64,000 bases of DNA from Parcubacteria group bacterium (lineage in GTDB: Bacteria > Patescibacteriota > Minisyncoccia > Moranbacterales > UBA2206), in contig JBAZUU010000002.1 in assembly GCA_041661275.1 (NCBI GenBank), forward strand, positions 33,206-97,205. Direction: 5' to 3'. This document shows, piece after piece, positions 3,356 through 52,584 of this stretch (positions are counted from its first letter, which is position 1; every line of letters begins with the position of its first letter). The notes beneath the pieces were generated by a model. That model saw nothing but the letters and a program-made list of their open reading frames with translations. It was not told the origin of the DNA and ran no database searches. Both the position numbers and the translations under genes were made by a program.

Positions 3356-4069
3356 ATGGAAAAAGAACTGGAAAATGTGCCAGCTCACGTAGCGATCATT
3401 CCCGATGGCAACCGCCGCTGGGCGAGAGGCAAGGGAATGAAGCCGTGGGAAGGGCACGAAGTGGGAGCGAAAAATTTTGAAGTTCTGATAAAGCATTCGC
3501 TTAAAAAAGGCATAAAGTGTCTGACTATTTGGGGTTCGTCCATAGACAATCTGACTAAACGTCCATTTGATGAAAAGCGGGCCCTTCTTGATATATATAG
3601 TCGGTATTTTAAAAGGCTGTTGGATGGCAACGAGATCCATGAAAATGAAGTGCAAGTGAATGTCATTGGTCGGTGGGAAGAACAGTTTCCGGAGTCGCTC
3701 AAAAAAATAATCTATGAAGCCATGGAAAAAACCAGGCACTACAAGAAAAGGATGCTTAATTTTCTTTTGGCTTACAGTGGAACTGATGAAATGATTTTGG
3801 CAATCGAGTGTATTAGCAGCAAGTATGAAAAAGGCGTGAAAATTACGCCGGAGCTGATAAAGGAAAACCTTATGACCAGGGGTTTACCACCGGTCGACTA
3901 TTTGGTGCGTACCGGTGGAGAACCGCATAACAGCACAGGATTTATGATGTGGGATATCGCTGACGCTCAATACTATTTCTCGCCCGAACTTTTTCCGGAC
4001 TTTGATGACAAAAAATATGAAGAAGCGTTGGAAGAATACGCGAGACGTCAGAGGAGATTTGGAGGCTGA
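3356..4069 (+). CDS. uppS: Undecaprenyl diphosphate synthase (cis-prenyltransferase)
   Basis: HVAIIPDGNRRWA signature and overall UppS-like sequence. Confidence 0.9.
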   Translation: MEKELENVPAHVAIIPDGNRRWARGKGMKPWEGHEVGAKNFEVLIKHSLKKGIKCLTIWGSSIDNLTKRPFDEKRALLDIYSRYFKRLLDGNEIHENEVQVNVIGRWEEQFPESLKKIIYEAMEKTRHYKKRMLNFLLAYSGTDEMILAIECISSKYEKGVKITPELIKENLMTRGLPPVDYLVRTGGEPHNSTGFMMWDIADAQYYFSPELFPDFDDKKYEEALEEYARRQRRFGG

Positions 4070-4185
4070 ATAAAATTTTCAATTTGAAATTTTAAATTTA
4101 AAATCAAATCTTAATTTAAAATTTTAAATTAAATCATTAAAAATTTATTTCAAATTTCAAATTAAAAATTTAAAATTTTAATCAC

Positions 4186-5417: not shown

Positions 5418-5423
5418 AAACGT

Positions 5424-5497
5424 CTTCCTCCTCTCCCTTCGGGAGAGGATGTCAGCCAAATTTTTTCTTAAAAATTTTGGCTGACAGGAGAGGGGAC
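5424..5497. repeat. GC-hairpin palindromic repeat unit (family 1): CCTCTCCC-loop-GGGAGAGG, then a TGTCA...TGACA hairpin, then GGAGAGGG
   Basis: cctctcccttcgggagagg hairpin followed by tgtcagccaaa...tttggctgaca hairpin and ggagagggg. Near-identical units are at 9663-9726 and (in inverted orientation) 26625-26673. Confidence 0.7.
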
Positions 5498-7112: not shown

Positions 7113-7746
7113 CAAATTTATGAGTAAGCTGGTTAATGAGTTGATAAAACAGGGATATCTTAAGTCCGACCTGATTATTGACGCCTTTTCTGAGATCAGC
7201 CGGGTTGAATTTGTTCCGCATGAATTGGAAAAGGAAGCAGAAGCGAACATCGCCCTCCCTATCGGTTATGGGCAAACCATTTCTCAGCCATTGACAGTGG
7301 CGTTTATGCTGGAACTTCTTGATCCAAAAAGAAGCCAAAATGTCCTGGACATTGGTTCCGGTTCTGGCTGGACAACCGCCCTTCTTTGCTATATAGTTGG
7401 GCGACATGGAAAAGTTACGGCTATTGAGCGAAAAGAGGAGCTTAAAAAAATGGGAGAAAAAAATACCGATAAATATGGATATCTCCGAAACGGAAAAGAT
7501 GGCATCGCTGAATTTTTTGTAGGCGATGGGACAAAAGGATTCAAAAAAAACGCGCCGTATGATAGGATTCTTGTATCTGCTTCGACTGAATGCGTCCCCA
7601 ACGATCTCAAAGAACAATTAAAAGTTGGAGGAAAGATGGTTGTCCCGCTTCGTCATAGTATTTGGTATATGGAGAAGAAAGGGGATAATGATTTTTACAA
7701 AGAAGAATATCCTGGGTTTGAGTTTGTACCGCTCATCGAAGACTAA
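7066..7746 (+). CDS. pcm: Protein-L-isoaspartate O-methyltransferase
   Basis: GYGQTISQP, VLDIGSGSGW and PYDRI motifs. Probable true start at 7120 (MSKLVNEL). Confidence 0.8.
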   Translation: MEREPATLSFRLWGYNKFMSKLVNELIKQGYLKSDLIIDAFSEISRVEFVPHELEKEAEANIALPIGYGQTISQPLTVAFMLELLDPKRSQNVLDIGSGSGWTTALLCYIVGRHGKVTAIERKEELKKMGEKNTDKYGYLRNGKDGIAEFFVGDGTKGFKKNAPYDRILVSASTECVPNDLKEQLKVGGKMVVPLRHSIWYMEKKGDNDFYKEEYPGFEFVPLIED

Positions 7747-7854
7747 AATTTGTAATTAGAAATTTTTAATTTTTAATGAATTTCTAATTACTAAATTTTA
7801 AAATTTTAAATTCAATAAAAATTTCAAATTAAAAATTAAAAATTACGAGTAAGG

Positions 7855-8865: not shown

Positions 8866-8904
8866 TTCCCTTTCCTAAAACCGGGTTTTAGGATTCTATA
8901 TAAT

Positions 8905-8936
8905 GCCGGTTGTCGTGCTTGACAACCGGCTTTTTA
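8905..8936 (+). terminator. Rho-independent terminator after mltG
   Basis: gccggttgtcgtgcttgacaaccggc stem followed by ttttta. Confidence 0.75.
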
Positions 8937-8995
8937 TTTGCTATAATGGACTATCGTAGTTTGAAAATTGGCAGGTGAATTGTGGCTTGTTTAAG

Positions 8996-9075
8996 CCCGG
9001 TGGCACAACTTTGTAATAACAGCTTAAGTCAAATATAGGGGCTTGCTAAATAAATTCTTAAGTTGTGCCACCGGG
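8996..9075. repeat. Perfect 16-bp inverted repeat (cccggtggcacaactt / aagttgtgccaccggg) enclosing 48 nt. MITE-like or structured leader.
   Basis: Exact reverse complement arms read directly in the sequence, between mltG and a small ORF. Confidence 0.6.
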
Positions 9076-9259
9076 TAAGCCATCTGGTCGACATATGCTT
9101 TTTACGGTTCTGTCCGTGAGTTCTGCTCAAAACTCCCTCCTTAGTTTTGCGCGGGTAAAAATGTATTTTTTTGTGATATTTCATGGAAAGATGCTACTCT
9201 TGCGGATGGAATTGTGAAAGGCATTTTTTAATCGACAACATTCATGAACATGAAGGAGT

Positions 9260-9505: not shown

Positions 9506-9564
9506 AATAGCTGCGGCTGGGAGCGTCATTCCTGGCCGCGGTTTTTGTTTTGGCTTTTAGTATT

Positions 9565-9726
9565 CCCTCTCTCCCCTTGGGAGAGATGTCACGATTCTTA
9601 TCGTGACAGAGAGGGTGCTATGTAAAACGGAAAAATTAAAGTTTTGTGAATTTAATTTAGAACCCTCTCCTGTCAGCCAAAATTTTAAGAAAAATTTAGG
9701 CTGACATCCTCTCCCGAAGGGAGAGG
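9565..9726. repeat. Composite family-1 element: two hairpin-pair units in inverted orientation flanking ~47 bp
   Basis: Left unit ccctctctccccttgggagagatgtcacgattcttatcgtgacagagaggg. Right unit ccctctcctgtcagcc...ggctgacatcctctcccgaagggagagg is near-identical to the reverse complement of the 5424-5497 unit. Confidence 0.7.
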
Positions 9727-9739
9727 AGGAAGAATGAGG

Positions 9740-12727: not shown

Positions 12728-12846
12728 ATGAAAAATGTAAATCTCAAAATGAAAAATGACAATGCAAAATAAAAAATTTATAAATTCCCATTTTTAATTT
12801 TAATATGTCATTTTGATTTTTACTTTTTTATTTTTGATTTATTTTT
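12728..12846. repeat. AT-rich inverted-repeat element (family aaatctcaaaatga..aaaatgacaa / ttgtcatttt)
   Basis: Left arm aaatgtaaatctcaaaatgaaaaatgacaatgcaaaat, right arm atgtcattttgatttttac. A related copy is at 22126-22228. Confidence 0.5.
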
Positions 12847-12847
12847 T

Positions 12848-17597: not shown

Positions 17598-17903
17598 AGC
17601 CAAAACTGCTAATAGATCCTTCGCATATCGGCTAATGCCGATATTGCTCAGGATGGCGGATTTTCCGCCAATTTGACACGAGTGCAACTTGTATGATAGA
17701 TTTATATATCAGATAGGGAAAATGGGCTAAAAATCATATTCTGACAAGTTGTCGGCCGAACCGAAAAAATCTAAACTGATTTTCAAAAAACAAAAAACTC
17801 AAAAATAAAAATATACAAAGATAACGCATATCTCTTTTCTTTGTAGTTTGATTTTTGAGTTTATTTTTTTAACAGATCTAAAATCTTATTTATATAAAAT
17901 TAT

Positions 17904-19268: not shown

Positions 19269-19718
19269 ATGAATTGTCCATTTTGTAACAATCAAGAAAC
19301 AAAAGTAGTAGATTCACGGGATACTAGTGATGGAAAAATAACCCGCAGACGTCGTGAATGCTTCAAATGCACTGCCCGGTTTTCCACTTATGAAGAAATA
19401 GAGCTTTTACGACTGGCCATCGTCAAAAAAGACGGTTCAAAAGTTGATTATGATAAGTGTAAAATCGAAGCGGGGATAAAAAAAGCATTGGAGAAGCGGC
19501 CAATCACTCAAGAAAGATTTGCCAAACTCATGGGAGACATCGAATATGATATGCGGTCGATGGAAAAGCCGGAAATAACCACCAGAGAAATCGGAAAAAT
19601 GGTGCTCAAAAAACTGAAAGAACTCGACGAAGTCGCTTATGTGCGATTTGCGAGCGTCTATAAATCATTCGGATCGATAGAGAGTTTCAAGAAAGAATTA
19701 GATACGTTTGACAAATAG
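19269..19718 (+). CDS. nrdR: Transcriptional repressor NrdR
   Basis: MNCPFCNNQETKVVDSRDTSDGKITRRRRECFKC zinc ribbon plus ATP-cone. Confidence 0.9.
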   Translation: MNCPFCNNQETKVVDSRDTSDGKITRRRRECFKCTARFSTYEEIELLRLAIVKKDGSKVDYDKCKIEAGIKKALEKRPITQERFAKLMGDIEYDMRSMEKPEITTREIGKMVLKKLKELDEVAYVRFASVYKSFGSIESFKKELDTFDK

Positions 19719-19722
19719 AAGA

Positions 19723-19837
19723 TAGTTGATTGGAAAATAGAAAATAGTTCAGGAAAAAAGAAATAGGAGAATGGAAAATCAAATTTCTAATTTCCACTTT
19801 CTTAAGCCATTTTCCTTTTTCTATTCAACTAATTTCT
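19723..19837. repeat. Imperfect palindromic intergenic element, family 'agttgattggaaaatag...gttcaggaaa...ccattttc...tattcaactaatttc' (copy 1)
   Basis: Related copies at 28201-28330 (opposite orientation) and 46171-46286. Arms are partially self-complementary. Confidence 0.65.
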
Positions 19838-19871: not shown

Positions 19872-22067
19872 ATGATGGCAAAACAAAAACACAAATTGGG
19901 GGCGGCAATGGGGGGCGACCGGAAAAAGAAAAAGAAAATTACTAACAAGATCACAAAAATTGTGAAGCGCGACGGAACGGTGGCGGACTTCAGTCAGAAA
20001 AAGATTGTGGAAGCGGTTTACAAAGCTTTTTGCGAAACGGACGAAGCGGGTTTGAAGGAAGCGCGGATGGTGAGTGAAAAAGTCGTGTCTATGATGAACA
20101 GAAAAGCTATCCCTGATATTATTCCTAGCATCGAACAGATCCAGGACTTGGTGGAAAAAGTGCTGATGATCATGGATTTTGACGAAACGGCCAAGGCCTA
20201 TATTCTCTATCGTGATAAGCGGGCCAAGATCCGCGATACCGAAGCTTCACTCACTGAAGCAGTCGACTTAATTGAAAAATATATCCAAGAAATTGACTGG
20301 CAGGTGAAAGAAAATGCCAATATGGCTTACTCCTTACAAGGTCTTAACAACTACATTTCTTCTATTGTCAGCTCCAAATATTGGATGGATAGGGTTTATC
20401 CTAAATCTATTAAACGGGCTCACGAAGAAGGGGATTTCCATATTCATGACCTGGACAAGATCGCCGCCTATTGCTGCGGGTGGGACTTGCAGGATCTTCT
20501 GACGCGCGGTTTTACCGGAGTTTCCGGAAAACTTTCCTGCAAACCGCCAAAACACTTGCGAAGCGCTCTTGGACAGGTGGTGAACTTTTTCTACACTACT
20601 CAAGGCGAAACAGCTGGCGCGCAGGCCTTTTCCAATTTTGACACGCTTCTTGCTCCATTTGTGAGGTATGACAAGCTAAATTATGAATCAGTGAAGCAGG
20701 CGATGCAGGAATTTATTTTTAACCTTAATGTTCCAACCAGGGTCGGATTCCAGACACCATTTACTAATCTGACCATGGATCTCAATTGTCCTTCGACATA
20801 CAAAGATCAGAACGTTATTATTGGTGGGGTGCCGCAAAAAGAAAAATATTCTGATTTTCAAGAGGAGATGGATGTTATCAACCGCGCTTTTGCCGAAGTG
20901 ATGAGCGCTGGAGACGCTTCTGGCAGGGTGTTCACTTTTCCCATCCCAACTTATAACATTACTAAAGATTTTAAGTGGGACAATCCCAACCTTGATAAAG
21001 TTTGGGAAATGACTGCCAAATTTGGTATTCCATATTTTGCCAACTTCATCAATTCCGATATGAACGCGGATGACGCGCGCTCAATGTGTTGCCGATTGCG
21101 CCTCGATAACCGCGAACTGCATAAGCGGATGGGCGGGCTTTTTGGTGCGGCGCCTCTCACCGGATCGGTGGGGGTGGTGACACTTAATATGCCACGCCTT
21201 GGGTATCTGGCCAAAGACAAAAAAGATTACTTCAAGCGTCTTGACGATCTTATGGATTTGGCGAAAGAGAGTCTCGAGATGAAAAGAAAGATAATTGAAA
21301 ATTATACGGTCGGAGGCCTATATCCATACTCCAAATATTATCTGGACAACATTTTCAAGCGTCGCGGATCGTATTGGGGCAATCATTTTTCCACTATCGG
21401 ACTTCTCGGGCTCAATGAATCGCTGGTTAATTTCATGGGAGAAAGCATCACCTCGAAAAAGGGCCAGAAATTTGCCGAAGAGGTGCTAGAACATATGAGA
21501 GACAGGATGATAAAGTATCAGGGAGAAACGGGAAATCTATATAATCTGGAAGCGACACCGGCCGAAGGAACGAGTTACCGTCTGGCGCTCAAAGACAAAA
21601 AACGATTTCCTAAGATGATATTTGCCAATAATGGCGCGGTAGAAAAAGGCGCAGAGCCATACTATACTAATTCTTCACAGCTTCCAGTGAGTTATACCGA
21701 TGATATTTTTGAAGCGCTAGATCTTCAGGATAAGTTGCAAACTAAATACACTGGCGGAACGGTACTTCATGGATTTTTAGGAGAGCGGATCTATGATATA
21801 GAAACGACCAAAAAACTAGTGAAAAAGATCGCTTCCAACTATTCTTTGCCATATTTCACTCTTTCACCGACATTTTCCATCTGTCCTAATCACGGTTACA
21901 TCGAGGGTGAACATGCCACCTGTCCTAAATGCGTGGTAGAACAAAAATGTGAAGTTTATTCCAGGATAGTCGGTTATATCCGACCGATCGAACAATGGAA
22001 CGCCGGCAAAGCGCAAGAATTCATCGATAGGAAAGAATATAGGGTGAAGGCAAAGGTGGCAAAATAA
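19872..22067 (+). CDS. nrdD: Anaerobic ribonucleoside-triphosphate reductase (class III)
   Basis: N-terminal ATP-cone, C-terminal Zn ribbon CPNHGY...CPKC and glycine-radical motif SRIVGYIRP. Confidence 0.9.
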   Translation: MMAKQKHKLGAAMGGDRKKKKKITNKITKIVKRDGTVADFSQKKIVEAVYKAFCETDEAGLKEARMVSEKVVSMMNRKAIPDIIPSIEQIQDLVEKVLMIMDFDETAKAYILYRDKRAKIRDTEASLTEAVDLIEKYIQEIDWQVKENANMAYSLQGLNNYISSIVSSKYWMDRVYPKSIKRAHEEGDFHIHDLDKIAAYCCGWDLQDLLTRGFTGVSGKLSCKPPKHLRSALGQVVNFFYTTQGETAGAQAFSNFDTLLAPFVRYDKLNYESVKQAMQEFIFNLNVPTRVGFQTPFTNLTMDLNCPSTYKDQNVIIGGVPQKEKYSDFQEEMDVINRAFAEVMSAGDASGRVFTFPIPTYNITKDFKWDNPNLDKVWEMTAKFGIPYFANFINSDMNADDARSMCCRLRLDNRELHKRMGGLFGAAPLTGSVGVVTLNMPRLGYLAKDKKDYFKRLDDLMDLAKESLEMKRKIIENYTVGGLYPYSKYYLDNIFKRRGSYWGNHFSTIGLLGLNESLVNFMGESITSKKGQKFAEEVLEHMRDRMIKYQGETGNLYNLEATPAEGTSYRLALKDKKRFPKMIFANNGAVEKGAEPYYTNSSQLPVSYTDDIFEALDLQDKLQTKYTGGTVLHGFLGERIYDIETTKKLVKKIASNYSLPYFTLSPTFSICPNHGYIEGEHATCPKCVVEQKCEVYSRIVGYIRPIEQWNAGKAQEFIDRKEYRVKAKVAK

Positions 22068-22125: not shown

Positions 22126-22228
22126 TGTAAAAATCAAAAATCAAATCTCAAAATGACAAATCAAAATTAAAAAATGATTAAAATTTTGCATTTTACATTG
22201 TCATTTTTATTTTTGAGATTTTCATTTT
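22126..22228. repeat. AT-rich inverted-repeat element (same family as 12728-12846)
   Basis: aatgtaaaaatcaaaaatcaaatctcaaaatgacaaatc / ttgtcatttttatttttgagattttc arms. Confidence 0.5.
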
Positions 22229-22239
22229 AATTTTTTATT

Positions 22240-25088: not shown

Positions 25089-26684
25089 GTGACCAAATCA
25101 AAAGTATTTTTTATTTTATCATTGGGTTTTATCGGGGGTGTTTTTAGTGCCTCTTTTTATTATCCCAGTCTGATTGATAATTATTATTTATTAATTTTAG
25201 TTTTGCTAGCTGTTATAATTCTAGCTATTTTTTACAAAAAACCGGCGATGATGGCCGGATTTTTTATATTATTTTTTATTTTTGGTATACACTTGACGGA
25301 AAAAAGACTGGAAGTGGTGAAAAATATAAAAGAAGATGATTTTTCGGGGGAGGTTGTGGTAATAGGCGAGCCAACAATATCAGGCAGGCAACAAAGAATG
25401 GTTGCTTTTCCCAAGATCCAACCTTTGGAGCAGCTCCCAAGGTTGAACCTTGGAACTGATTCAAGATTTTTAATAACCGCTGGAATTTTTCCTGAATATA
25501 AATATGGAGATGTTTTGAGAGTTGATTGTAAATTGGAAATTCCAAAGAATTTTGGACGAGGTCCTTCGACTGCGTCCGACTTGCGGTCGGACTCCGCTCA
25601 GGACGAATCCTCCGGATTCGATTACAAAATGTATCTAGCCAAAGACGGGATTTATTATCTTTGCAATAATCCTAAAATAGAAGATCTTAATAGAAACGAA
25701 GGAAATAAATTTTACGCGGCGATATTGAATATTAAAAATAAATTTAATGACAATATAATGAAGCTGATGCCGTCGCCGCAGTCGGGGTTGCTTTCGGGAT
25801 TATTAATCGGAGGATCGGGGCTACTTTCTAAAGACTATCAAAATTATTTTTCTCTCACCGGCACAACGCACATCGTAGCAGTGTCCGGATACAATGTAAC
25901 AATTGTCGCGGAATATCTGATGCTTCTGGGACTTTTTATCGGTCTCTGGCGGCAGCAAGCCTTTTGGTTTGCGGCTATTGGAATAATTTTTTTTGTAATT
26001 TTAACCGGCATGCCGTCTTCGGCCGTTCGGGCGGGAGTGATGGGGATTCTTCTCATTTGGGCGATGAAGAACGGGCGATTGGCTAACGCGCAAAATGCTA
26101 TCATATTTGCGGCGGGAGTTATGCTATTGGCAAATCCATTGTCATTGCGTTGGGATGTCGGATTTCAACTGTCATTTTTGGCGACACTGGGGATCGTTTA
26201 TGTTTATCCGATATTTAATGAATATCTTATGAAATTAGACGCGATGAATCGCGTCTCTACGATTGCGGAAATATTATTTCTTACACTATCGGCGCAGGTT
26301 TTTGTTTTGCCGATATTGATGATTAATTTTGGAAAATTGTCTCTCATTTCACCTCTGGCTAACGTCCTGATTTTGCCCATTATTCCGCTCACGATGCTCA
26401 CCGGATTTATAGCTATCCTTTTTAGTTTTATCATTCCGCCCATCGGTCAAGTCTTCGCCTGGTTGGCCTTTTTGCCGTTGAAATATGAAACGATGGTAAT
26501 AAAATTTTTGGCCAGTCTAAAATATTCCTCGGTGGAAATTTCCAATTTTTCGTGGATTGGAGTGGTTTTGTGGTATATAATTTTAGGAGGAGGGGTAGTT
26601 TTGATTAAAAAGAAAATAACAAATCCTCCTCTCCCCTTGGGAGAGGATGCCGAGTCTTCGAGGCAGGAGAGGGCTCCTAATTAA
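25089..26684 (+). CDS. comEC: ComEC/Rec2 competence channel protein (DUF4131 + competence domains)
   Basis: Multi-pass membrane protein. GYNVTIVAEYLM and competence-domain similarity. Last 19 codons and the stop are contributed by repeat element C. Confidence 0.8.
   Translation: MTKSKVFFILSLGFIGGVFSASFYYPSLIDNYYLLILVLLAVIILAIFYKKPAMMAGFFILFFIFGIHLTEKRLEVVKNIKEDDFSGEVVVIGEPTISGRQQRMVAFPKIQPLEQLPRLNLGTDSRFLITAGIFPEYKYGDVLRVDCKLEIPKNFGRGPSTASDLRSDSAQDESSGFDYKMYLAKDGIYYLCNNPKIEDLNRNEGNKFYAAILNIKNKFNDNIMKLMPSPQSGLLSGLLIGGSGLLSKDYQNYFSLTGTTHIVAVSGYNVTIVAEYLMLLGLFIGLWRQQAFWFAAIGIIFFVILTGMPSSAVRAGVMGILLIWAMKNGRLANAQNAIIFAAGVMLLANPLSLRWDVGFQLSFLATLGIVYVYPIFNEYLMKLDAMNRVSTIAEILFLTLSAQVFVLPILMINFGKLSLISPLANVLILPIIPLTMLTGFIAILFSFIIPPIGQVFAWLAFLPLKYETMVIKFLASLKYSSVEISNFSWIGVVLWYIILGGGVVLIKKKITNPPLPLGEDAESSRQERAPN
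25437..25453. repeat. REP-like palindrome CCAAGGTTGAACCTTGG inside the comEC reading frame
   Basis: Identical palindrome flanks the RAYT gene at 49526-49550 and 50232-50258. Here it encodes ...LPRLNLGT... in frame. Confidence 0.7.
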
Positions 26685-26773
26685 ATTCGCAAAACTATAA
26701 GCTTGTTACTGTTTCACCAAGAGCCCTCTTTGTCACGATAAGAATTGTGACATCTCTCCCAGGGGGAGAGAGG
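26625..26773. repeat. Composite family-1 GC-hairpin element (two inverted units) spanning the comEC stop
   Basis: cctcctctccccttgggagagg...gagaggg and ccctctttgtcacgataagaattgtgacatctctcccagggggagagagg. The right unit is nearly the reverse complement of the 9565-9615 unit. Confidence 0.7.
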
Positions 26774-26980
26774 AAAGAAAAAAGACAATAAAAAAATCCC
26801 CGATTCTTAACCGCGGCGGCGGCGAAAGTCGGGGGCTAATCCCACCATGGATCGTTCCAGATCAGATGGGCGATGATATGAAAAATAATGTCACTTAGAT
26901 TGTATATCATATCATGATTTCACTAAAAAATCAAGCGCTCTCATACGATAAGCTAAAATTCTCCTTAACCAAGCCAAAAT

Positions 26981-27811
26981 ATGCCTAATCGAAAAGCCCT
27001 ATATTTAATCCTCCTGACTCTTGCTATCATTGCCGCTATTTTGGCGGGGATTATTTGGTATCAGCAAAAACAAGAAATGAAAGTGGTTTTTTTTGATGTG
27101 GGACAAGGGGATTCCATTCTGATTGAGCAGGGAAGTAATCAGATTTTGATTGATGGTGGACCGGACGGAAAAAAAGTAATGGAAAAATTGGGCGAATATG
27201 TACCGTTTTGGGATAGGAATATAGAAGTGGTGATAGCGACTCATCCGGACGAAGACCATATTGACGGGCTCATTGATGTCATGGAAAATTACAATATTGG
27301 TGAAATAATCGATAATGGAGCTGATGTAGACAGTCAGGTTTATAAAAAATATCAGGACGTAATCTCGCAAAAAAATATCAATCGTATCGAGGGAAAATCG
27401 GGAATGGAAATAAAACTGGCGGATAATACAAAACTTTCTATTTTATCTCCTGATGGAACGCAAGACAAAAATAACCCGAAAGATACAAATCTTTCGAGCA
27501 TCGTTTCTAAACTAACTTTCGGTGAAAATAGTTTTTTATTTACTGGCGATTTTCCGACAGAAGGCGAGCAAGATTTATTTAGTAAAAATATCGATTTACG
27601 CGCGCGAGTGCTGAAAGTAGCTCATCATGGGTCAAAATATGCAACAAGTGACGAATTTCTAGATAAAGTTAACCCACAAGAGGCAGTAATATCCGTTGGG
27701 AAAAACAATAGATATGGACACCCGGCAGAGGATGTGATAAGCAGATTGGAAGCGCATAAAATTAATATAAAAAGAACCGATGTATCCGGAGATATCGAGT
27801 ATCAATTTTAA
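26981..27811 (+). CDS. Metallo-beta-lactamase fold protein, ComEC C-terminal-like (ComEC/Rec2-related)
   Basis: N-terminal transmembrane helix. FFDVGQGDSILIE, HPDEDHIDGL, LKVAHHGS MBL motifs. Confidence 0.75.
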   Translation: MPNRKALYLILLTLAIIAAILAGIIWYQQKQEMKVVFFDVGQGDSILIEQGSNQILIDGGPDGKKVMEKLGEYVPFWDRNIEVVIATHPDEDHIDGLIDVMENYNIGEIIDNGADVDSQVYKKYQDVISQKNINRIEGKSGMEIKLADNTKLSILSPDGTQDKNNPKDTNLSSIVSKLTFGENSFLFTGDFPTEGEQDLFSKNIDLRARVLKVAHHGSKYATSDEFLDKVNPQEAVISVGKNNRYGHPAEDVISRLEAHKINIKRTDVSGDIEYQF

Positions 27812-27912
27812 ATTTGAAATTTTAAATTTGAAATGAATTTTAAATGACTAAATTTGAAATTAAAGCATTAAAAATTGATTAAAAATTTTAAATTAAAAAT
27901 TAAAAATTACAG
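27812..27912. repeat. AT-rich 'aaatttgaaat(g)a' repeat element (family shared with 4076-4185, 7747-7851, 58365-58500)
   Basis: aatttgaaatgaattttaaatgac and terminal aaattaaaaattaaaaattac(g)ag shared with the copy at 7747-7851. Confidence 0.5.
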
Positions 27913-27990
27913 AACCAAATATTCTTGCCAAATTGATAATATGGTGATAAGCTGTACTTTGTTGTATAATAAATATAAGAATTCAAATTT

Positions 27991-28194
27991 ATGCCAGTAG
28001 CCAGACAAAGACATACCAAAGCCAGACGCGACAGAGCGAGAGTGTTTTACAAGCTAAAACCGAAAAGTCTTGTGGAATGTTCCAATTGTAGCGCTATGAT
28101 CATTGCCCATACCACTTGCCCAAAATGCGGATTTTATAAGAAAAAAGAAGTGGTGGACACGATGAAGAAAGCGACAAAAAAAGCGAAAAAGTAG
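27991..28194 (+). CDS. rpmF: 50S ribosomal protein L32
   Basis: MPVARQRHTKARRDRAR...ECSNCS...CPKCGFYKKKEV matches the bL32 pattern with a zinc-ribbon Cys pair. Confidence 0.7.
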   Translation: MPVARQRHTKARRDRARVFYKLKPKSLVECSNCSAMIIAHTTCPKCGFYKKKEVVDTMKKATKKAKK

Positions 28195-28200
28195 TTTTTA

Positions 28201-28330
28201 GAAATTAGTTGAATAGAAAAAAGAAAATGGTTTAAGAAATAGGAAATAGGAAATAAGAAATTAGATCATATCTTTTTTCCAACTTCTTCTTTCCTGAACT
28301 ACTTTCCATTTTCCAATCAACTATTTTCCA
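28201..28330. repeat. Imperfect palindromic intergenic element, family 'agttgattggaaaatag' (copy 2, inverted relative to copy 1)
   Basis: gaaattagttgaatagaaaaaagaaaatggtttaagaaatagg ... cctgaactactttccattttccaatcaactattttcc. Confidence 0.65.
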
Positions 28331-28337
28331 ATTTTCT

Positions 28338-28835
28338 ATGGCCAACCGACATCTTTCACGCTCAATCGCCATGCAATCACTCTATGAGTGGGATTTTAAC
28401 GGACGCAAAAAGGAAAGTGTTGATGAGATAGTTGAAAAGAATATCAAAGAATTCGGACCAGGAATGGACGACACTAGTTTCGTAGAAAACCTTGTTAAAA
28501 GTACCATCAAAAATCAGGACAAAATTGATCCACTTATTGAAAAATGCGCTCCGGAATGGCCACTAGACCAAGTGACGATCGTTGACCGGAATATTTTGCG
28601 TTTAGGGATAAATGAACTGCTTTTTGGCAACTATGAAGAAGTGCCTCCTAAGGTGGCGATAAACGAAGCAATCGAGCTGGCCAAATCCTTTGGTGGGGAG
28701 AGTTCCGGAAGATTTGTCAATGGAGTTCTGGGAACGATATACAGGGAGTTGGGCGAGCCGATGAAGGATGATGACTCGAAAAAGCGCAAGGAAATAAGAG
28801 AGAAGGAAAAGGAGAATAAAAAAGAAGAAAAATAA
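28338..28835 (+). CDS. nusB: Transcription antitermination factor NusB
   Basis: [13 protein letters not shown]..., [28 protein letters not shown]-rich C-terminal tail. Confidence 0.85.
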
Positions 28836-28945
28836 TTAATTTTAAAATCACAAATTCAAAATTACAAATCCCAAATAAATTAAAAAATTACAATATTAAA
28901 ATTCAAAACAGTTTATAATTTTGGATTTTAGCCATTGTAATTTAT

Positions 28946-29665
28946 TTGGAATTTGAGATTTTGTATTTGGTGCTTATGGCATTTATGACATCCGATCTAT
29001 CAAAAAAACTGGGAGTAAAATTCAATAATCCCGAACTTTTGCAACAAGCCGTAACTCATCGTTCATACCTTAATGAGCATCGGAGTTATAAACTTGATCA
29101 TAATGAGCGTCTTGAATTCCTGGGAGACGCGGTTTTGGAGTTGGCAGTGACGGAATATCTATATAACAATTATGAAAATCCGGAAGGCGAACTGACCAAC
29201 TGGCGAGCAGCTCTTGTTAATGGAGAAATGCTGGCCAAAATTTCCAAAAAATTGGGCGTGGAAGAATTTCTTATGATGAGTCGTGGAGAAACCAAAGATA
29301 CCGGGCGCGCGCGCCAATACCTTTTGGCCAATGCTTTTGAAGCCATCACCGGTGCTATTTATCTTGACTCCGGTTATGACACGGCCAAGGATTTTATTAT
29401 GAAAAACGTAGTAATCTATCTTGACGAAATAATCGAGAAAAAACTATTCCTAGATCCCAAAAGTCGTTTTCAGGAGGAAGCGCAGGACAAAGTCGGTACT
29501 ACACCGTCCTATCGCGTTTTGGAAGAAGCGGGACCTGATCACGACAAGAAATTTGTCGTTGGAGTATTTTTAGACTCGGAAATGATCGCCAAGGGCGAGG
29601 GGCCGTCCAAGCAGGAAGCTCAAAGGCAGGCGGCAGAGAAGGGATTGGAAGTGAAGAGTTGGTAA
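28946..29665 (+). CDS. rnc: Ribonuclease III
   Basis: ERLEFLGDAVLELAV RNase III signature plus a C-terminal dsRBD. Confidence 0.85.
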   Translation: MEFEILYLVLMAFMTSDLSKKLGVKFNNPELLQQAVTHRSYLNEHRSYKLDHNERLEFLGDAVLELAVTEYLYNNYENPEGELTNWRAALVNGEMLAKISKKLGVEEFLMMSRGETKDTGRARQYLLANAFEAITGAIYLDSGYDTAKDFIMKNVVIYLDEIIEKKLFLDPKSRFQEEAQDKVGTTPSYRVLEEAGPDHDKKFVVGVFLDSEMIAKGEGPSKQEAQRQAAEKGLEVKSW

Positions 29666-29678
29666 ACAAAAACAAAAA

Positions 29679-32048
29679 ATGTTTCTCAAACGCCTAGAAA
29701 TTAACGGCTTCAAATCATTTGCCTCCAAAACCACTTTGGATTTTTTGATTGACTCTGAAAACCACAAGACTCATGGGATAACAGTAGTGGTCGGACCAAA
29801 TGGAAGTGGCAAATCCAACATTGCCGATTCTTTGCGTTGGGTGATGGGGGAGCAATCAATGAAACATCTGCGCGGAAAAAAATCAGAGGACATTATTTTT
29901 GCCGGAAGTGGAAAAAAAGCGCGTTTAGGGAGTGCCAAAGTAACTTTATATCTAGACAATTGTGACCAAAAAATTCCCATTGATTTTTCCGAAGTTACCA
30001 TTGCCAGAAAAATTAACCGTTCTGGCGAGGGAGAATATTTTATCAATGGTTCGCGTGTCCGTCTTCAGGATATTACCGATCTTTTGGCCAAAGCTGGCGT
30101 AGGAAAAGAAAGTTATGCCATTATCAACCAGGGAATGGCCGATGCTATTCTTGCCGCCTCGCCACTGGAACGCCGGACGATCATTGAAGATGCAGCCGGA
30201 GTGAAACAATATCAGATCAAAAAAGAAAGGTCTATCCGAAAACTGGATTCAACTCGGGAAAATTTGGAGCGAGTGAAAAGTTTAGTAGAAGAAATAAAGC
30301 CGCATCTTCGAATGCTCAAAAGACAATCGGACAAAGCGGCTAAGAGTGAGGAAATATTTACGAGTCTTAAAGAAAAGCAGATAAAACTTTTCAGTCATCT
30401 TTGGCATAATTTTCGAGACGAGAAACAAATTTTTGATGAAAAAAAAGACGAATTGGGACGAGAGATGATGAATATGCAACGCGAAGTAGATAAACTTTTA
30501 GACGCAATAAACGCGGAAGAAAAGAACAATAAGGAAAATGAGACTCTCGCCGGATTGGAAAAAGATTCTAGGGAAGCTCGGGTGAAATATAATACTCTCG
30601 AGCGAGAGCTGATCATAACAGAGGGACGATTGGAAATTGAAAAAGAGAAGCAAGCTAGCCGGCAAGTCTTGGAGGAGATAAAAATAACCAGTATTCCTGT
30701 CGATTCTCTTTATGTCAAAAAAATAGTGGAAGAAATCCGGATCGACCAGGAAAGGTTGATAGAAAAATTACAAAAAGTGGAAAAGATTGAAGAACTCCAA
30801 GATATCAAAGAATTTGCCCGAGCGATCCAACAAAGACTATTTGAGCTCAAAGCAGATATTGAAAAAGGGAAAAAGGAGCAGAATTCCGAGAGCGAGGCTC
30901 TCGGAGCCGCTCCAAGAGCCTCGCTCTCGGATGCTTCTGAAATTAAGAAAGACAACTCGGTAATTTTAGAATTGCAAAATAAATTAGTCCAGTTGAGAAA
31001 GGATATAAAGGATCTGGAAAACAAAATTAGAGAAATCGATGAATCGAGAGAAAAAGAAATAACGGAAGACAGAAATCGACGCCAGAAATTTTTTGAGATT
31101 GAAAGAAAAATGAGGACAAAGCAGGATGAACTGGGAAAACTGAAAGATCAATTCAATGATGCCAAAATTTCTTTGGCGCGCGTGGAAGTGCGAGAGGAAG
31201 ATTTGAGGACGGATGTAAAATCAGCGCTCAAAATAGAACCCGAGGAACTTTCAAAAAATAATGAAGAAATCAATCGGGAAGAGTTGGAGCGAGAAGTGGC
31301 GCGTCTGAAAATCCAACTGGAACAGATCGGCGGAATAGATCCGATGGTGATAGATGAATATAGGGAAACTCAAAAACGTTTTGATTTTCTCTCCACTGAA
31401 TCAGAAGATCTGGAAAAAGCTATTGGTAGTCTTCGGGAGATAATAAAAGAAATGGAGCAAAAAATTTCTAAGGAATTTGAGCTGGCTTTCACCGAGATCA
31501 ACAAAGAATTCACCAAATACTTCAAAATAATTTTTGGTGGCGGCGCAGCGCATCTGACAAAAGTTAAGGTAAAAAATCGGAAGTTTAAGATTAAAAAAAC
31601 CGAAGAAGAATCAGATTTAGAAACTGAAAATATAGAGCAAAACGGTGATGACAATGTAGAAGATGTGGAAAATGAAAAGGATGAGATCGGAATCGATATC
31701 TTTGCTTGTCCGCCAGGAAAAAGAATAACCAGCCATGCTATGCTTTCGGGAGGTGAACGGTCACTTACTTCTCTGGCTCTTCTCTTTGCTGTCATTGCCC
31801 ACAACCCACCACCATTCTCTATTTTGGATGAAGTAGAGGCGGCACTTGATGAAGCTAATTCCAGACGTTTTGGCCGGATACTTTCAGAGCTTTCCAAAAA
31901 CACTCAATTTGTCATTATCACTCATAACCGTGAAACCATGCGCCAGGCGTCGATGCTCTATGGGGTGACGATGGGGGAAGACGGAATTTCCAAACTTCTT
32001 TCGGTGAGATTAGACCAAGTAGGACAAGGAGGGAAAATTATAAAATAA
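29679..32048 (+). CDS. smc: SMC-like chromosome segregation ATPase (short form, 789 aa)
   Basis: N-terminal Walker A GPNGSGKSN, long coiled coil, C-terminal LSGGERSLTSLALLFA signature and Walker B ILDEVEAALD. Confidence 0.8.
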   Translation: MFLKRLEINGFKSFASKTTLDFLIDSENHKTHGITVVVGPNGSGKSNIADSLRWVMGEQSMKHLRGKKSEDIIFAGSGKKARLGSAKVTLYLDNCDQKIPIDFSEVTIARKINRSGEGEYFINGSRVRLQDITDLLAKAGVGKESYAIINQGMADAILAASPLERRTIIEDAAGVKQYQIKKERSIRKLDSTRENLERVKSLVEEIKPHLRMLKRQSDKAAKSEEIFTSLKEKQIKLFSHLWHNFRDEKQIFDEKKDELGREMMNMQREVDKLLDAINAEEKNNKENETLAGLEKDSREARVKYNTLERELIITEGRLEIEKEKQASRQVLEEIKITSIPVDSLYVKKIVEEIRIDQERLIEKLQKVEKIEELQDIKEFARAIQQRLFELKADIEKGKKEQNSESEALGAAPRASLSDASEIKKDNSVILELQNKLVQLRKDIKDLENKIREIDESREKEITEDRNRRQKFFEIERKMRTKQDELGKLKDQFNDAKISLARVEVREEDLRTDVKSALKIEPEELSKNNEEINREELEREVARLKIQLEQIGGIDPMVIDEYRETQKRFDFLSTESEDLEKAIGSLREIIKEMEQKISKEFELAFTEINKEFTKYFKIIFGGGAAHLTKVKVKNRKFKIKKTEEESDLETENIEQNGDDNVEDVENEKDEIGIDIFACPPGKRITSHAMLSGGERSLTSLALLFAVIAHNPPPFSILDEVEAALDEANSRRFGRILSELSKNTQFVIITHNRETMRQASMLYGVTMGEDGISKLLSVRLDQVGQGGKIIK
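30887..30930. repeat. Palindromic element (family 2: GAGCGAGGCTCTCGGAGCCGCTCCNAGAGCCTCGCTC) in frame inside smc
   Basis: cgagagcgaggctctcggagccgctccaagagcctcgctctcgg encodes SEALGAAPRASLS. A second copy is intergenic at 33731-33773. Confidence 0.7.
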
Positions 32049-33713: not shown

Positions 33714-33730
33714 CAGAAATATTTGTTCTC

Positions 33731-33773
33731 CTGGAGCGAGGCTCTCGGAGCCGCTCCCAGAGCCTCGCTCCAG
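33731..33773. repeat. Family-2 palindromic element, intergenic copy
   Basis: ctggagcgaggctctcggagccgctcccagagcctcgctccag. Confidence 0.7.
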
Positions 33774-33783
33774 GACGGGGTTC

Positions 33784-39499: not shown

Positions 39500-39624
39500 T
39501 TTGTTTTGATGTTGGTCTTTACTAATTACTAATCAAATACCAATATACTAATCCGTAGCGTTTTAGAGGTTAAGCCTCGGACAAGTCATTGGTATATTAG
39601 TAGAAAATTCGTAATTCGTAAAGA

Positions 39625-40341
39625 CTACCTATCTTCTTCTAATTCCTTCTTTAATTTTTCCATATCCGGCGCCCATTCGTCCAGAATGGAATCGCTGTTG
39701 TCCTTTTTTTCTGTCATTGTCTTTTCTGGTTCTGGCGCTGGTTTTTTCTTATCAGCAATAAGTTCATCAATATCCATTGGAGGGGATGATATATAATTTT
39801 TGTTATCCCGCGATTTTTGCAGAACGTTTTCAATGGCTGCCCAATCCGAATCGATGTCGCGAGAGGCGACCATCGTTACTTCATCGCCCGGCTCCACTTT
39901 GAAATAGGTGATAGAGGCGAGAAGAACTTTATAGGCTTTTCCTTCGGCGGCGACAAAATAGTTACCGTCAGCGTCTTGCGAAACTGATCCGATGAGTCTT
40001 TTCCGCTCGACCGGTCCAATTTGTTTATAAATAAAAGACCCGTCTGGCGTAATGGTCAGTTTGAGCATGTCGCCTTCGACTAATTTTGATTTAGAAGCAT
40101 AATTGGCCGGCACCGGATATTGCTTTCCGTCCGTGCCGATCATAATTTGTCCGTCAAAAGTGCCTTCAATAACTTTGCCGTCTTCTTCATTGCCGTCACT
40201 CTTTCTTTTTCGTCCAACTTTTTTCTTTCCTTCGAGTTGCAAAAGCATAGCCTTTGCCCCCTGCAAAGTTTTTTCAGCGTTATAGATCATCTCACGCAAC
40301 GCCTGAACCTTTTCGTTAGTTTTATCGTTCTTTTCCTCCAT
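39625..40341 (-). CDS. Hypothetical protein with internal duplication and acidic/basic termini
   Basis: Two related ~60-aa segments (GTFDGQIMIGTDGKQYPVP... / NYFVAAEGKAYKVLLASITYFKVEPGDEV...). No family recognised. Confidence 0.4.
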   Translation of the reverse strand: MEEKNDKTNEKVQALREMIYNAEKTLQGAKAMLLQLEGKKKVGRKRKSDGNEEDGKVIEGTFDGQIMIGTDGKQYPVPANYASKSKLVEGDMLKLTITPDGSFIYKQIGPVERKRLIGSVSQDADGNYFVAAEGKAYKVLLASITYFKVEPGDEVTMVASRDIDSDWAAIENVLQKSRDNKNYISSPPMDIDELIADKKKPAPEPEKTMTEKKDNSDSILDEWAPDMEKLKKELEEDR

Positions 40342-45724: not shown

Positions 45725-46159
45725 ATGTCCAGAATTATTACAGCCAATAGCTTTAGTTTTAACGTTGCGGGCAGTTCTGACCTCAAAATGAGAAAGAGGG
45801 TAAGATCAAGCGGCCGCGTTTTGACCATGAACGGCAAAAAAACAACCAGGACGATGGGAACAAATTTGGGCGACGCAGGACGAAGCCTTATTAGTGTTTG
45901 TTTTATTCTGACGGTCGGGGTTGTGATGCTCGGAGCATACTATCTCTATCAAGTGAATGATCTGGCTACCAAAAGTTATGAGATGAAAGATATGGAAGTA
46001 AGAATTCAGCAGTTGCAAAAAGAGGGCAAAAAGATGCAGATTAGAGAAGTGGAACTGCGCTCGATGTATAATCTGGAAAAAGCAACCGAAAATCTCGATC
46101 TGGTCAACGCCCAGAATGTTATATATTTAGAAATGAAAAGTCCGGTGGCTATGAAATAG
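45725..46159 (+). CDS. ftsL: Cell division protein FtsL-like (start probably internal)
   Basis: Single transmembrane segment followed by a coiled coil. Position between rsmH and ftsI. Confidence 0.5.
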   Translation: MSRIITANSFSFNVAGSSDLKMRKRVRSSGRVLTMNGKKTTRTMGTNLGDAGRSLISVCFILTVGVVMLGAYYLYQVNDLATKSYEMKDMEVRIQQLQKEGKKMQIREVELRSMYNLEKATENLDLVNAQNVIYLEMKSPVAMK

Positions 46160-46170
46160 ATTAAATTAGA

Positions 46171-46286
46171 AAATAGTTGATTAGAAACTGGAAAATAGTT
46201 CAGGAAAATGGAGATTAGAAAATAGATATCCTGTTTCCAATTTCTTTTTTCTTAAACCAATTTCTATTTTCCATTCAACTAATTTC
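46171..46286. repeat. Imperfect palindromic intergenic element, family 'agttgattggaaaatag' (copy 3)
   Basis: tagttgattagaaactggaaaatagttcaggaaaatggagattag ... cttaaaccaatttctattttccattcaactaatttc. Confidence 0.65.
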
Positions 46287-46299
46287 TAAAACGAAAGAG

Positions 46300-49521: not shown

Positions 49522-49525
49522 AGCT

Positions 49526-49550
49526 ACTTCCAAGGTTGAACCTTGGAAGT
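49526..49550. repeat. REP-like palindrome ACTTCCAAGGTTGAACCTTGGAAGT (left flank of RAYT)
   Basis: Perfect 25-nt palindrome directly after the murF stop. Confidence 0.8.
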
Positions 49551-49564
49551 GAGAATTTTATTAT

Positions 49565-50233
49565 ATGCAAAGAAAAATACCATTTATCAATGGGGAGTTT
49601 CATCATATTTATAATCGCGGAGTAGATAAACGCGAAATTTTTCTAGATAGAGATGATTATGAAAGGTTTTTTATTTCTATGTATTTTTTAAATACCAAGG
49701 AAAATGATCTGATAAGCAAGTGGTTAGATTTTAAGAAATTTAATCCCAAGGTTCAACCTTGGGAGTTTAAAAAAATAAAGTCGGAAGATAAACTCGTTGA
49801 GCTTAATTGTTATTGTCTAAATGATAATCATTACCACTTTATTATAAAACAACTTCGAGATAGAGGTATTGAAATATTTATGCAGAAACTGGGAACGAGT
49901 TACACTATGTATTTTAATAAGAAGTATGACAGAAGCGGATCATTGCTTCAGGGAAGGTTTAAGTCGGCTTATATTGACTCCGATGATAAATTGCTCTATT
50001 TGTCAGCGTATGTGAATAAAAATCATTCTATCCATGGGTATAAAGAGGGTGATAATTGGCAATATTCAAGTTTGAATGAATACCTGAATAAAAGCAAAAC
50101 TTTTTGTCTTTGCAATAAAAGTCCGATCATTGATCAATTCAGGGACATAAAGGAGTATCAAAACTATATAAATGTGAATGCGCTACAGATGAGAGAAAGT
50201 AAAGAAATGGAAAAAATGGCATTGGAATTTTAA
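49565..50233 (+). mobile_element. IS200/IS605-like HUH-Y1 transposase of REP-associated type (RAYT)
   Basis: YHIYNRG first-strand motif, HuH motif NDNHYHFII, Tyr motif LYLSAYVNKNH (compare E. coli TnpA-REP DYIYINPVKHG). Flanked on both sides by the same palindrome. Confidence 0.75.
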
Positions 50234-50258
50234 CTTCCAAGGTTGAACCTTGGAAGTT
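50232..50258. repeat. REP-like palindrome AACTTCCAAGGTTGAACCTTGGAAGTT (right flank of RAYT)
   Basis: Perfect palindrome. Immediately followed by a diverged copy of the murF 3' end (50259-50313). Confidence 0.8.
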
Positions 50259-52580: not shown

Positions 52581-52584
52581 AGGT

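Follow-up and report, generated by a model that had tools for sequence, protein, structure and literature searches.

INTRODUCTION

Bacterial MITEs are elements of <200 bp with terminal inverted repeats (TIRs) that form long RNA stem-loops, are co-transcribed and show presence or absence between strains (PMC3184786; PMC2229807). ERIC/IRU is an imperfect palindrome of ~127 bp with TA termini, which occurs in transcribed intergenic regions in either orientation, is co-transcribed, varies in presence and absence, and forms a long RNA stem-loop (PMC3184786; PMC2229807). The Correia elements are MITEs of 104–157 bp with long TIRs, located near genes and co-transcribed, with hairpins that have been proposed as RNase III targets (PMC2229807). 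Palindromic repeats of 100–170 bp with long stem-loops are furthermore described for reduced or AT-rich genomes, including RPE in Rickettsia, RUP, BOX and SPRITE in pneumococcus, as well as bcr1, CIR and YPAL (PMC3184786; PMC2229807).

Here we report on a palindromic repeat, named family A, in a 64,000-nucleotide stretch of DNA (the whole of which is referred to below as the window) whose source is contig k141_670888 of ENA ERZ27249449 and whose host belongs to Candidatus Moranbacteria/Moraniibacteriota (CPR, Parcubacteria), with an NrdD that is 70–75% identical to those of named MAGs. Family A is alike ERIC/IRU with regard to size, whole-length palindromy, placement, use of both orientations, presence or absence and possible TA flanks, but differs by a ~7-nt periodicity, a purine-rich 5′ and a pyrimidine-rich 3′ arm, the host phylum and the lack of a demonstrable target-site duplication (TSD). 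No match was obtained in a blastn search (word 11, low-complexity filter on) of one copy, c1, against 5,426 complete E. coli genomes, or of family A against plasmids, and as judged by these comparisons family A is an analogue of ERIC and not a member of it.

As with Correia/NEMIS, a TA target is a candidate for family A too; Correia elements, however, have discrete TIRs of 24–26 bp, a non-palindromic core, an IHF site and promoters, whereas family A is palindromic throughout and has no promoter-like site. Both REP/REPIN-RAYT and family A are hairpin-forming intergenic repeats, and a palindrome-flanked RayT/IS200-like Y1 gene is found in the window, but the palindrome flanking that gene is a different one, and the family-A arms contain no short-REP doublets and no evident conserved REP head. 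The likeness to Correia, RUP and RPE is looser than that to ERIC/IRU, and RPEs are often found in frame within genes, whereas stops in all frames are present in family A. Cyanobacterial STRRs are tandem heptanucleotide repeats in intergenic regions. The TAACTGA repeats of Beggiatoaceae are reported to be intergenic tandem heptanucleotides as well (PMC4679880); on that description a 7-nt periodicity is common to STRRs, TAACTGA repeats and family A, with the former two being direct tandem arrays whereas family A has degenerate heptads in two complementary arms.

RESULTS

Four copies of family A

An earlier note on this DNA had listed three copies of an imperfect palindromic element in intergenic spacers, and all three were found where it had placed them, including the end at 28330 to which it had corrected its second copy. 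Family A as counted here comprises four copies, three in the window and one in a JGI metagenome contig (L003):

19717–19837, + strand: family-A copy c1, between the nrdR stop (19716–19718) and nrdD, as assigned by sequence, fold and nhmmer (E 5e-34); left purine-rich arm ~19717–19775, apex ~19776–19778, right pyrimidine-rich arm ~19779–19837
28201–28328, − strand (inverted versus c1 and c3): family-A copy c2, between the rpmF stop (28192–28194) and the nusB ATG (28338); arms 28201–28261 and 28268–28328, with a longer apex
46166–46289, + strand: family-A copy c3, between the stop of an FtsL-like gene (46157–46159) and the ftsI ATG (46300); arms 46166–46225 and 46231–46289
L003:4058–4180: fourth family-A copy, in the 5′ leader of hrcA

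The window copies are solitary and 8–18 kb apart, with a unit size of 121–128 nt and an inserted length of 120–143 nt. Over the ~120-nt core, pairwise identities were 80.0–83.3% among c1, c2 and c3 and 80.7–85.7% between these and the L003 copy, with E-values of 3e-33, 5e-31 and 4e-25 when the latter was compared by BLASTN with the three window copies. The L003 copy lies between a perfect CIRCE operator (TTAGCACTC-N9-GAGTGCTAA) and the hrcA start codon, with grpE downstream. Counting the left-terminal 17-mer ATAGTTGATTGGAAAAT with ≤3 mismatches gave 7 matches versus 0.89 expected, which rules out chance similarity among the copies. The opposite orientation that the earlier note had given to c2 was borne out by the nhmmer family profile, which scored 112–117 bits in the assigned orientation versus 68–74 bits in the opposite one and thus made the call secure. 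A Logan assembly from another run (L002, SRR6484324) was 100% identical to the window over positions 27881–28874, with c2 included, and because of this base-for-base match in an independent assembly c2 is no assembly artefact.

The genes flanking the copies were, according to Pfam, NrdR and NrdD, L32 and NusB, and an unnamed 144-aa protein together with a class-B PBP transpeptidase, with the two genes of each pair being co-directional at all three window junctions. The 144-aa protein, encoded downstream of MraZ-RsmH, gave a sub-threshold NCBIfam match to FtsL (23 bits, cutoff 55), and its ‘FtsL’ label is positional. Elsewhere in the window, the ORF at 229–717 is likely to be no gene. Since promoter-like sites were found upstream of nrdR and none between nrdR and nrdD, we infer that the window copies sit within transcription units and would be co-transcribed with their neighbours.

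Anatomy and predicted fold

The inverted repeat runs through the whole unit, with 30–31 of 40 positions being Watson–Crick matches in ungapped arms. The bounding termini of family A can be written as GAA(A/G)ATAGTTGATTGG...CCAATCAACTAT(T/C)TTC, with AGAA(A/G)ATAGTTGA pairing with TCAACTAATTTCT at the unit ends, and in alignments of the copies the conserved termini read ATAGTTGATT and ATTCAACTAATTTCT. The conserved parts are located as follows:

19722–19731, + strand: TIR core ATAGTTGATT in c1, formed by invariant alignment columns of the window copies and the L003 copy and by pattern matches
19823–19837: partner of that core in c1, ATTCAACTAAT(TTCT)
28315–28324 and 28201–28215: terminal cores in c2, inverted
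46173–46182 and 46273–46287: terminal cores in c3
19745–19756, + strand: invariant internal block TAGTTCAGGAAA; its pairing partner, TTTCTTAA(G/A)C, is at 19797–19806

Each arm is a run of ~7-nt units (GGAAAAT AGAAAAT ...), with the arm autocorrelation peaking at lag 7 for c1, c2 and c3, and c2 has one extra terminal heptamer in addition to its longer apex. The GAAA(A) of the purine-rich 5′ arm pairs with the (T)TTTC of the pyrimidine-rich 3′ arm and, as the unit is palindromic, the purine-rich arm comes first on either strand.

Folding, which the earlier note had proposed as a check, resulted in one long imperfect hairpin for each copy, with MFE values of the sense-strand RNA of −36.6, −36.0 and −38.0 kcal/mol for c1, c2 and c3, respectively (z = −5.4, −4.4 and −5.7 relative to dinucleotide shuffles). 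In the consensus structure, 43 pairs form helices of ~2–7 bp that are interrupted by symmetric internal loops of 1–3 nt every ~7 nt. Folds of the corresponding ssDNA were far weaker (−18.2, −15.9 and −18.3 kcal/mol; z = −2.9, −1.5 and −3.1), and this difference makes a selection or role at the RNA level possible. Copy c2 is transcribed in the worse-folding of its two orientations (−36.0 vs −47.3 kcal/mol). Compensatory changes were seen in 0 of the 43 consensus pairs, a count that comes from four similar sequences only and is hence uninformative rather than negative.

In c1, c2 and c3 each of the three reading frames has a stop codon no more than ~20 nt from the sense 5′ end, and the family-A unit is non-coding. 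No sigma-70-like promoter or terminator-like site was found inside any window copy. When the window was scanned against Rfam 15 only two tRNAs reached the gathering score, with no family-A match, and a permissive Rfam scan of c1 gave 18–21 bits to plant miRNA hairpins having cutoffs of 70–211 bits.

The same junctions in relatives

Relatives with orthologous junctions were found through NusB (89–93% identity in local BLASTP, 87–90% full-length) and through the FtsL-like protein (81–88% identity). At rpmF|nusB the site was empty, with TAA followed directly by ATG in L085–L088 and with 1–9 nt in between in L013, L094, L024 and L049. The window spacer at this junction is 143 nt (28195–28337), nearly all of it being element, and the whole of this spacer is absent in relatives. 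The tight linkage that the earlier note had supposed for these genes in the absence of the element is confirmed in relatives, where rpmF and nusB are 0–3 nt apart. The nrdR|nrdD spacer in L085, L086 and L088 was an unrelated A+T-rich sequence of 38–54 nt, and comparison with the empty site placed the inserted block of c1 at ~19718/19719–19837/19838. As the 34 nt left between c1 and nrdD (TTATAATATTTTTTAAT...) match the ancestral spacer of L086 (shared TAATATTTTTTA), c1 is inserted directly behind the nrdR stop. The ftsL|ftsI spacer was 16 nt in L098.

Other relatives carried different hairpins at the same places. In L096 and L097 the ftsL|ftsI junction had a different 121-nt hairpin (AAAGTTC/AAAGTGC), at rpmF|nusB, L095 had a hairpin of 108 nt (CGAATC/TACGAAT) and L035 one of 85 nt, and about 15 of the relatives' loci had differing hairpins at nrdR|nrdD. 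The hairpin at rpmF|nusB in L095 and that at nrdR|nrdD in L058 are visibly one family, found at different loci in different genomes. The nusB|rnc spacer contained a hairpin in all six loci measured.

Family-A copies were absent from about 60 Moranbacteria loci, including the syntenic ~15–20 kb of the closest relatives, and an nhmmer profile of the four copies found no further copy in about 110 loci, where the weak matches were other low-complexity hairpins. An exact gapped pattern for both termini had 0 matches among GTDB representative genomes and, in JGI metagenomes, found one true copy (that of L003) together with one chance match inside a CDS (L004). A shorter form of this pattern, with the right-arm terminus reduced to 11 nt, gave 9 matches in IMG/VR, all of them chance matches having no nhmmer signal. 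Absence from the relatives' loci and the GTDB representatives argues for a lineage-restricted family that has spread recently. With empty sites and unrelated hairpins at the same junctions of relatives, family A is, as far as sequence comparison can tell, a lineage-restricted insertion and not a conserved regulatory structure or feature of these operons. We infer insertion rather than loss by parsimony, over a handful of relatives and with no resolved phylogeny.

Insertion sites

The upstream genes at all three window copies end with TAG where those of the relatives end with TAA. TAG makes up 18 of the 66 stops in the window (27%), giving a P of about 0.02 for three TAG. The first paired bases of c1 overlap the TAG stop of nrdR, and in both c1 and c2 the G of TAG is the first base common to the copies. 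The TAG stops, with this G coinciding with the first base of the element, suggest insertion at or within the stop codon. A TA adjoins five of the eight element ends, including both ends in c2, at boundaries that are not single-nucleotide sharp and in a context of 60% A+T. No TSD was demonstrable when the filled and empty sites of c1–c3 were compared, these being A+T-rich and with loose boundaries.

A wider class of long hairpins

Long hairpins were defined as having ungapped 40-nt arms with ≥28 Watson–Crick matches and a loop of ≤40 nt. The window contains 13 such hairpins versus 0.1 in local shuffles, all of them intergenic, with family A accounting for three of the 13. In 68 CPR (Moranbacteria) loci, covering 1.13 Mb, there were 86 hairpins and 0 in shuffles, and 18 non-CPR loci obtained with the same NrdD query had 4 in 0.29 Mb. 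The arms of the class are heptad-periodic, with a mean autocorrelation of 0.47 at lag 7, 0.42 at lag 14 and ~0.28 at other lags, and with lag 7 being the best in 46 of 99 hairpins. As for placement, 74 of 100 hairpins were in co-directional spacers, 10 in convergent and 10 in divergent spacers, and 1 in a CDS; the hairpins nearly fill their spacers. Anchoring of the hairpins to the upstream stop was considered and rejected, as 10 of 13 were within 8 nt of it in the window but, class-wide and where there was slack, 21 were nearer the stop versus 22 nearer the start.

In the 74 co-directional hairpins from the window and the 68 CPR loci, the sense strand had 123 G·T vs 146 A·C oppositions (p = 0.18). 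With no G·T preference on the transcribed strand the palindromy looks strand-symmetric, which would fit a DNA-level feature or a young insertion. In the literature we found no description of such a hairpin class in CPR bacteria.

A palindrome-flanked Y1 transposase gene

The sole transposase-like gene in the window is located 3.3 kb from c3:

49565–50233: Y1_Tnp (IS200/RayT-like) gene, 222 aa, Pfam PF01797 with 25.5 bits (cutoff 23)
49522–49552 and 50229–50259: perfect palindrome CTTCCAAGGTTGAACCTTGGAAG, one on each side of the Y1 gene

The encoded protein contains HYH as its HUH motif, and a Tyr within the sequence SAYVNKN, with an NCBIfam RayT match far below the cutoff (20 vs 80 bits). A Mur ligase gene precedes it, and a 54-nt duplicate of that gene's 3′ end brackets the Y1 gene too. 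The homologue found in L109, which occupies one constant locus across many samples, has TTCCAAGACTAAGTCTTGGAA on both sides. Both CTTCCAAGGTTGAACCTTGGAAG and TTCCAAGACTAAGTCTTGGAA resemble family A only in the hexamer GTTGAA. The Y1 gene is absent from the same slot in L096 and L098, and the ORFs that occupy this slot there were rejected as homologues of it. The protein family has >1365 homologues, mostly in Moranbacteria and Parcubacteria, with some of them named RayT. The locus has a REP/RAYT-like architecture with a palindrome that differs from family A, and a link to family A is possible.

DISCUSSION

Family A is probably a non-autonomous, MITE/ERIC-like palindromic mobile element, representing a new family of a known kind. 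Its units are smaller than 200 bp and have no coding capacity, and they are dispersed over four unrelated loci, with one copy inverted and with three empty sites in relatives. An autonomous element having family-A termini was absent from the ~75 kb of the source contig that was examined. The comparisons show that, in the lineage of this genome, a unit of ~120–140 bp, being an imperfect inverted repeat throughout, has reached four or more unrelated sites by copying, and that three of these are stop/start junctions of adjacent essential genes where relatives have 0–54 nt. Having no promoter or terminator of its own, the element would be co-transcribed with its host operon and in the mRNA would fold into a long, regularly interrupted hairpin, thereby bringing the upstream stop and the downstream start to within ~15–20 single-stranded nt of each other (c2 and c3). 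Insertion at such junctions in a compact genome is tolerated probably because of this folding together with the three-frame stops near each end. The effect on the host would most likely be neutral to mildly modulatory, perhaps by uncoupling translation or by placing an RNase III site or an exonuclease barrier within the operon, and the element would be no designed regulator. Candidates for the mobiliser are a TA-targeting DDE transposase elsewhere in the genome, or a Y1 (HUH) transposase like that encoded at 49565–50233.

The latter candidate leads to a REPIN-like reading, with family A moved by a RayT/IS200-type Y1 (HUH) transposase for which the hairpin would be the ssDNA substrate, and with copies, whether excised or replicated, joining new sites beside a short recognition motif and leaving no duplicated target. 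The nearness of the Y1 gene to c3, the lack of both this gene and family A in L096 and L098, the commonness of the Y1 family in a clade, Moranbacteria/Parcubacteria, that is also rich in hairpins, the failure to detect a TSD and the strand-symmetric palindromy (G·T vs A·C) all agree with such movement, but a different, short perfect palindrome flanks the Y1 gene, the sequence around the homologue in L109 is unlike family A too, the RayT match is far below its cutoff, neither family-A arm is itself a REP-like palindrome and the ssDNA hairpin is weak, and we therefore regard this reading as improbable. Membership in REPIN/REP-RAYT as such was rejected, since the repeat flanking the Y1 gene is not the dispersed family A, and so was, by inspection, a REPIN doublet of short (20–40 nt) REPs, as the ~58-nt arms are degenerate heptads with no internal REP-like palindrome. 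It is likewise unlikely, in our view, that family A is a cis-acting RNA selected by the host, serving as an intercistronic RNase III site, a 3′-exonuclease barrier or a translational uncoupler that tunes the adjacent cistrons. Such a role would suit copies that are all found in transcribed regions, just ahead of start codons, and have very stable RNA folds, much stronger than those of the ssDNA, in a genome with an RNase III gene (in the window at 28946–29665) and with a hairpin at nusB|rnc in every locus measured, and effects of this type are documented for ERIC and Correia (PMC2229807). Close relatives, however, have the same operons without any hairpin, c2 is transcribed in its worse-folding orientation, none of the consensus pairs is compensatory (in four similar copies only), the sense strands of the 74 wider-class hairpins have no excess of G·U over A·C, and the regular internal loops of 1–3 nt would make a poor canonical RNase III substrate.

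An origin in situ, by heptamer slippage and hairpin-templated repair, with gene conversion accounting for the similarity between loci, could explain the ~7-nt tandem units of the arms and the lag-7 and lag-14 autocorrelation of the class, the extra heptamer and longer apex of c2, and the different hairpins at the same junctions in different lineages; we consider it very unlikely nonetheless, as 80–86% identity across ~120 nt between copies at four unrelated loci, with one copy inverted, would hardly arise unless whole units were copied, as the 0–3 nt sites of relatives offer no resident hairpin for conversion, and as the element has sharp boundaries against the ancestral spacer. The earlier note had proposed three roles, of which that of a MITE is the one that stood, with copies that are dispersed in both orientations, inverted repeats throughout, non-coding and matched by empty sites. 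Cleavage of the co-transcribed hairpin by RNase III or a similar enzyme, the processing that the earlier note had also named, is conceivable. An attenuator has against it that no terminator-like or promoter-like site is found in any copy and that the element is absent from the same operons in relatives, and a small-RNA gene that neither promoter, terminator nor Rfam match was found and that both orientations are used. A stable hairpin in a non-coding spacer would be compatible with an independent small-RNA gene or an intrinsic terminator/attenuator, but with an A+U-rich stem that lacks a G+C-rich base with a U-run behind it, with sub-threshold generic plant miRNA hairpins as the only Rfam hits, and with the points just given, the probability of either is close to negligible. 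Two further systems were considered and rejected. In an integron attC, which lies beside gene cassettes and an intI integrase, the order is 5′-RYYYAAC ... GTTRRRY-3′, whereas GTTGAWT ... AWTCAAC of family A is reversed versus this on both strands, family A flanks core housekeeping genes, and the Pfam-annotated genes examined include no integrase. A TIGR array is by definition a tandem one beside a Nop-domain tas gene, each unit having dual spacers and box C/D motifs (PMC12045711); the family-A units are solitary, form no tandem array and are without box C/D, and the Pfam lists hold no Nop-domain gene.

A broader view, which we put forward tentatively and hold to be rather less than even in its chances, is that family A represents a class of mobile hairpins, so far undescribed and spread across the clade of Moranbacteria and related Parcubacteria, ~80–130 nt long and with complementary degenerate-heptad arms, that would repeatedly and independently have colonised the stop/start junctions of essential operons, at targets of 0–3 nt. 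The RayT-like Y1 transposases, ubiquitous in the clade, might move such hairpins, or the hairpins might have been recruited as intercistronic RNA modules. The strong enrichment of heptad-periodic hairpins in a clade rich in RayT-like Y1 transposases gives a testable lead on their movement.

The usual description of CPR/Patescibacteria genomes, which are small and dense, is that they have little mobile DNA. Here, family A has split the translationally coupled essential pairs rpmF-nusB, nrdR-nrdD and ftsL-ftsI, with unrelated hairpins found at the same junctions in sister lineages. Elements of this kind are natural experiments in the tolerance of operon coupling towards a self-folding insert of 120 nt, and they provide practical strain-level markers as well as being a source of assembly breaks in CPR MAGs. 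In annotation, such spacers should not be taken for riboswitches, sRNAs or terminators. The part most worth following is the heptad-periodic, junction-filling hairpin class across Moranbacteria; if the class is what we tentatively propose, the supposedly streamlined CPR genomes would carry very active and specialised mobile DNA that targets gene junctions.

Long hairpins in the window and in related genomes

The window was found to hold 13 long A+T-rich intergenic hairpins, as compared to 0.1 expected (ungapped 40-nt arms with at least 28 Watson–Crick matches and a loop of no more than 40 nt). Besides family A, the hairpin repeat of about 120–130 nt, there were 10 such hairpins, among which at least two further repeat families, here called B and E, could be recognized by the heptads of their arms.

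Long A+T-rich intergenic hairpins of the window outside family A
2753–2850, hairpin
4066–4182 (4068–4183 in the scan), family B, AAATTTT/AAATTTG heptads
7740–7848 (7750–7841 in the scan), family B, AAATTTT/AAATTTG heptads
12728–12847 (12731–12829 in the scan), family E, AAAATGA heptads
17787–17870, hairpin
22129–22235, family E, AAAATGA heptads
27797–27905 (27807–27905 in the scan), family B, AAATTTT/AAATTTG heptads
28851–28969, hairpin
39513–39627, hairpin
58364–58479 (58368–58477 in the scan), family B, AAATTTT/AAATTTG heptads

A hairpin of similar type, built from ACGAAAT heptads, was also seen at 52581–52679 and fell below the scan threshold.

Long hairpins having arms with a 7-nt period were common in the intergenic spacers of Moranbacteria and Parcubacteria (loci L005–L059, L066, L071, L079, L081, L085–L088 and L094–L098): 86 were found in 1.13 Mb, whereas non-CPR loci gave 4 in 0.29 Mb. 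Corresponding gene junctions were empty in some lineages and occupied by unrelated hairpin families in others. The motif AATGA[CT][CT]AA was 26-fold enriched inside the hairpins (1.8/kb versus 0.068/kb), occurring in 15 of 100 hairpins across differing families and genomes, mostly immediately 5′ of the hairpin apex. Hairpins carrying it included one in the window (27845–27856) and others at loci L006, L007, L010, L013, L016, L045, L049 and L094, with none found in family A.

The Y1 transposase cassette

The RayT/IS200-like Y1 transposase gene at 49565–50233, within a cassette region spanning 49467–50312, is bracketed by perfect 23-nt palindromes, CTTCCAAGGTTGAACCTTGGAAG, at 49522–49552 and 50229–50259. 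Outside these palindromes, the Mur ligase gene that lies upstream has its 3′ end duplicated over 54 nt at 76% identity (49467–49520 and 50259–50312), and the cassette was missing from the corresponding slot in relatives. It looks as if the cassette entered the end of the Mur ligase gene, bringing a replacement end with it. Near-copies of the flanking palindrome (CCAAGGTTGAACCTTGG) were found within coding sequence at 25429–25459 and 49738–49768, respectively; one falls in a comEC-like gene, and the other codes for the residues NPKVQPWE of the Y1 transposase.

G+C-rich repeats and gene-poor stretches with predicted stable structure

Two copies of a 47-nt G+C-rich palindrome (TCCGAGAGCGAGGCTCTCGGAGCCGCTCC...), 85% identical, were found at 30885–30931 and 33729–33775; one appears to lie inside an SMC-like ORF (29679–32048), and the other follows a PMT-like gene. 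Two inverted repeat pairs, each with members kilobases apart, were G+C-rich stem-loops, exemplified by CTCTCCC-TTCG-GGGAGAG, and may be shared terminator modules.

Inverted repeat pairs
5423–5477 and 9679–9733, 55 nt, 95% identity
9537–9633 and 26706–26802, 97 nt, 78% identity

Unusually stable structures were predicted for the gene-poor stretches 8866–9259 (−155.7 kcal/mol, 410 nt folded) and 9506–9739 (−115.1 kcal/mol, 250 nt folded), neither of which matched Rfam at the gathering score.

The left end of the window carries a nucleotidyltransferase/HepT-like (MNT-HEPN) toxin–antitoxin pair (869–1472), and the contig just upstream of the window (L091:767–9747) holds several very large unannotated ORFs together with a TrwB/TraG-like ATPase.

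The nrdD gene and the family A copy at hrcA

The start of nrdD in the window is ambiguous (19872–19910). Because a Shine–Dalgarno-like GGGGG run at about 19897–19901 precedes the ATG at 19908, as such a run does about 8 nt 5′ of the nrdD ATG in many relatives, the true start may be 19908 and not 19872. The NrdD match spans 2.4–2.8 kb in many relatives (loci L013–L053) as compared to 2.2 kb in the window, a difference that points to inteins, or insertions of another kind, in the nrdD genes of the relatives.

In the metagenome contig carrying a fourth family A copy, an hrcA-grpE operon has this copy between a perfect CIRCE operator and the start codon of hrcA (L003:4018–4185), and the copy could therefore affect heat-shock regulation there.
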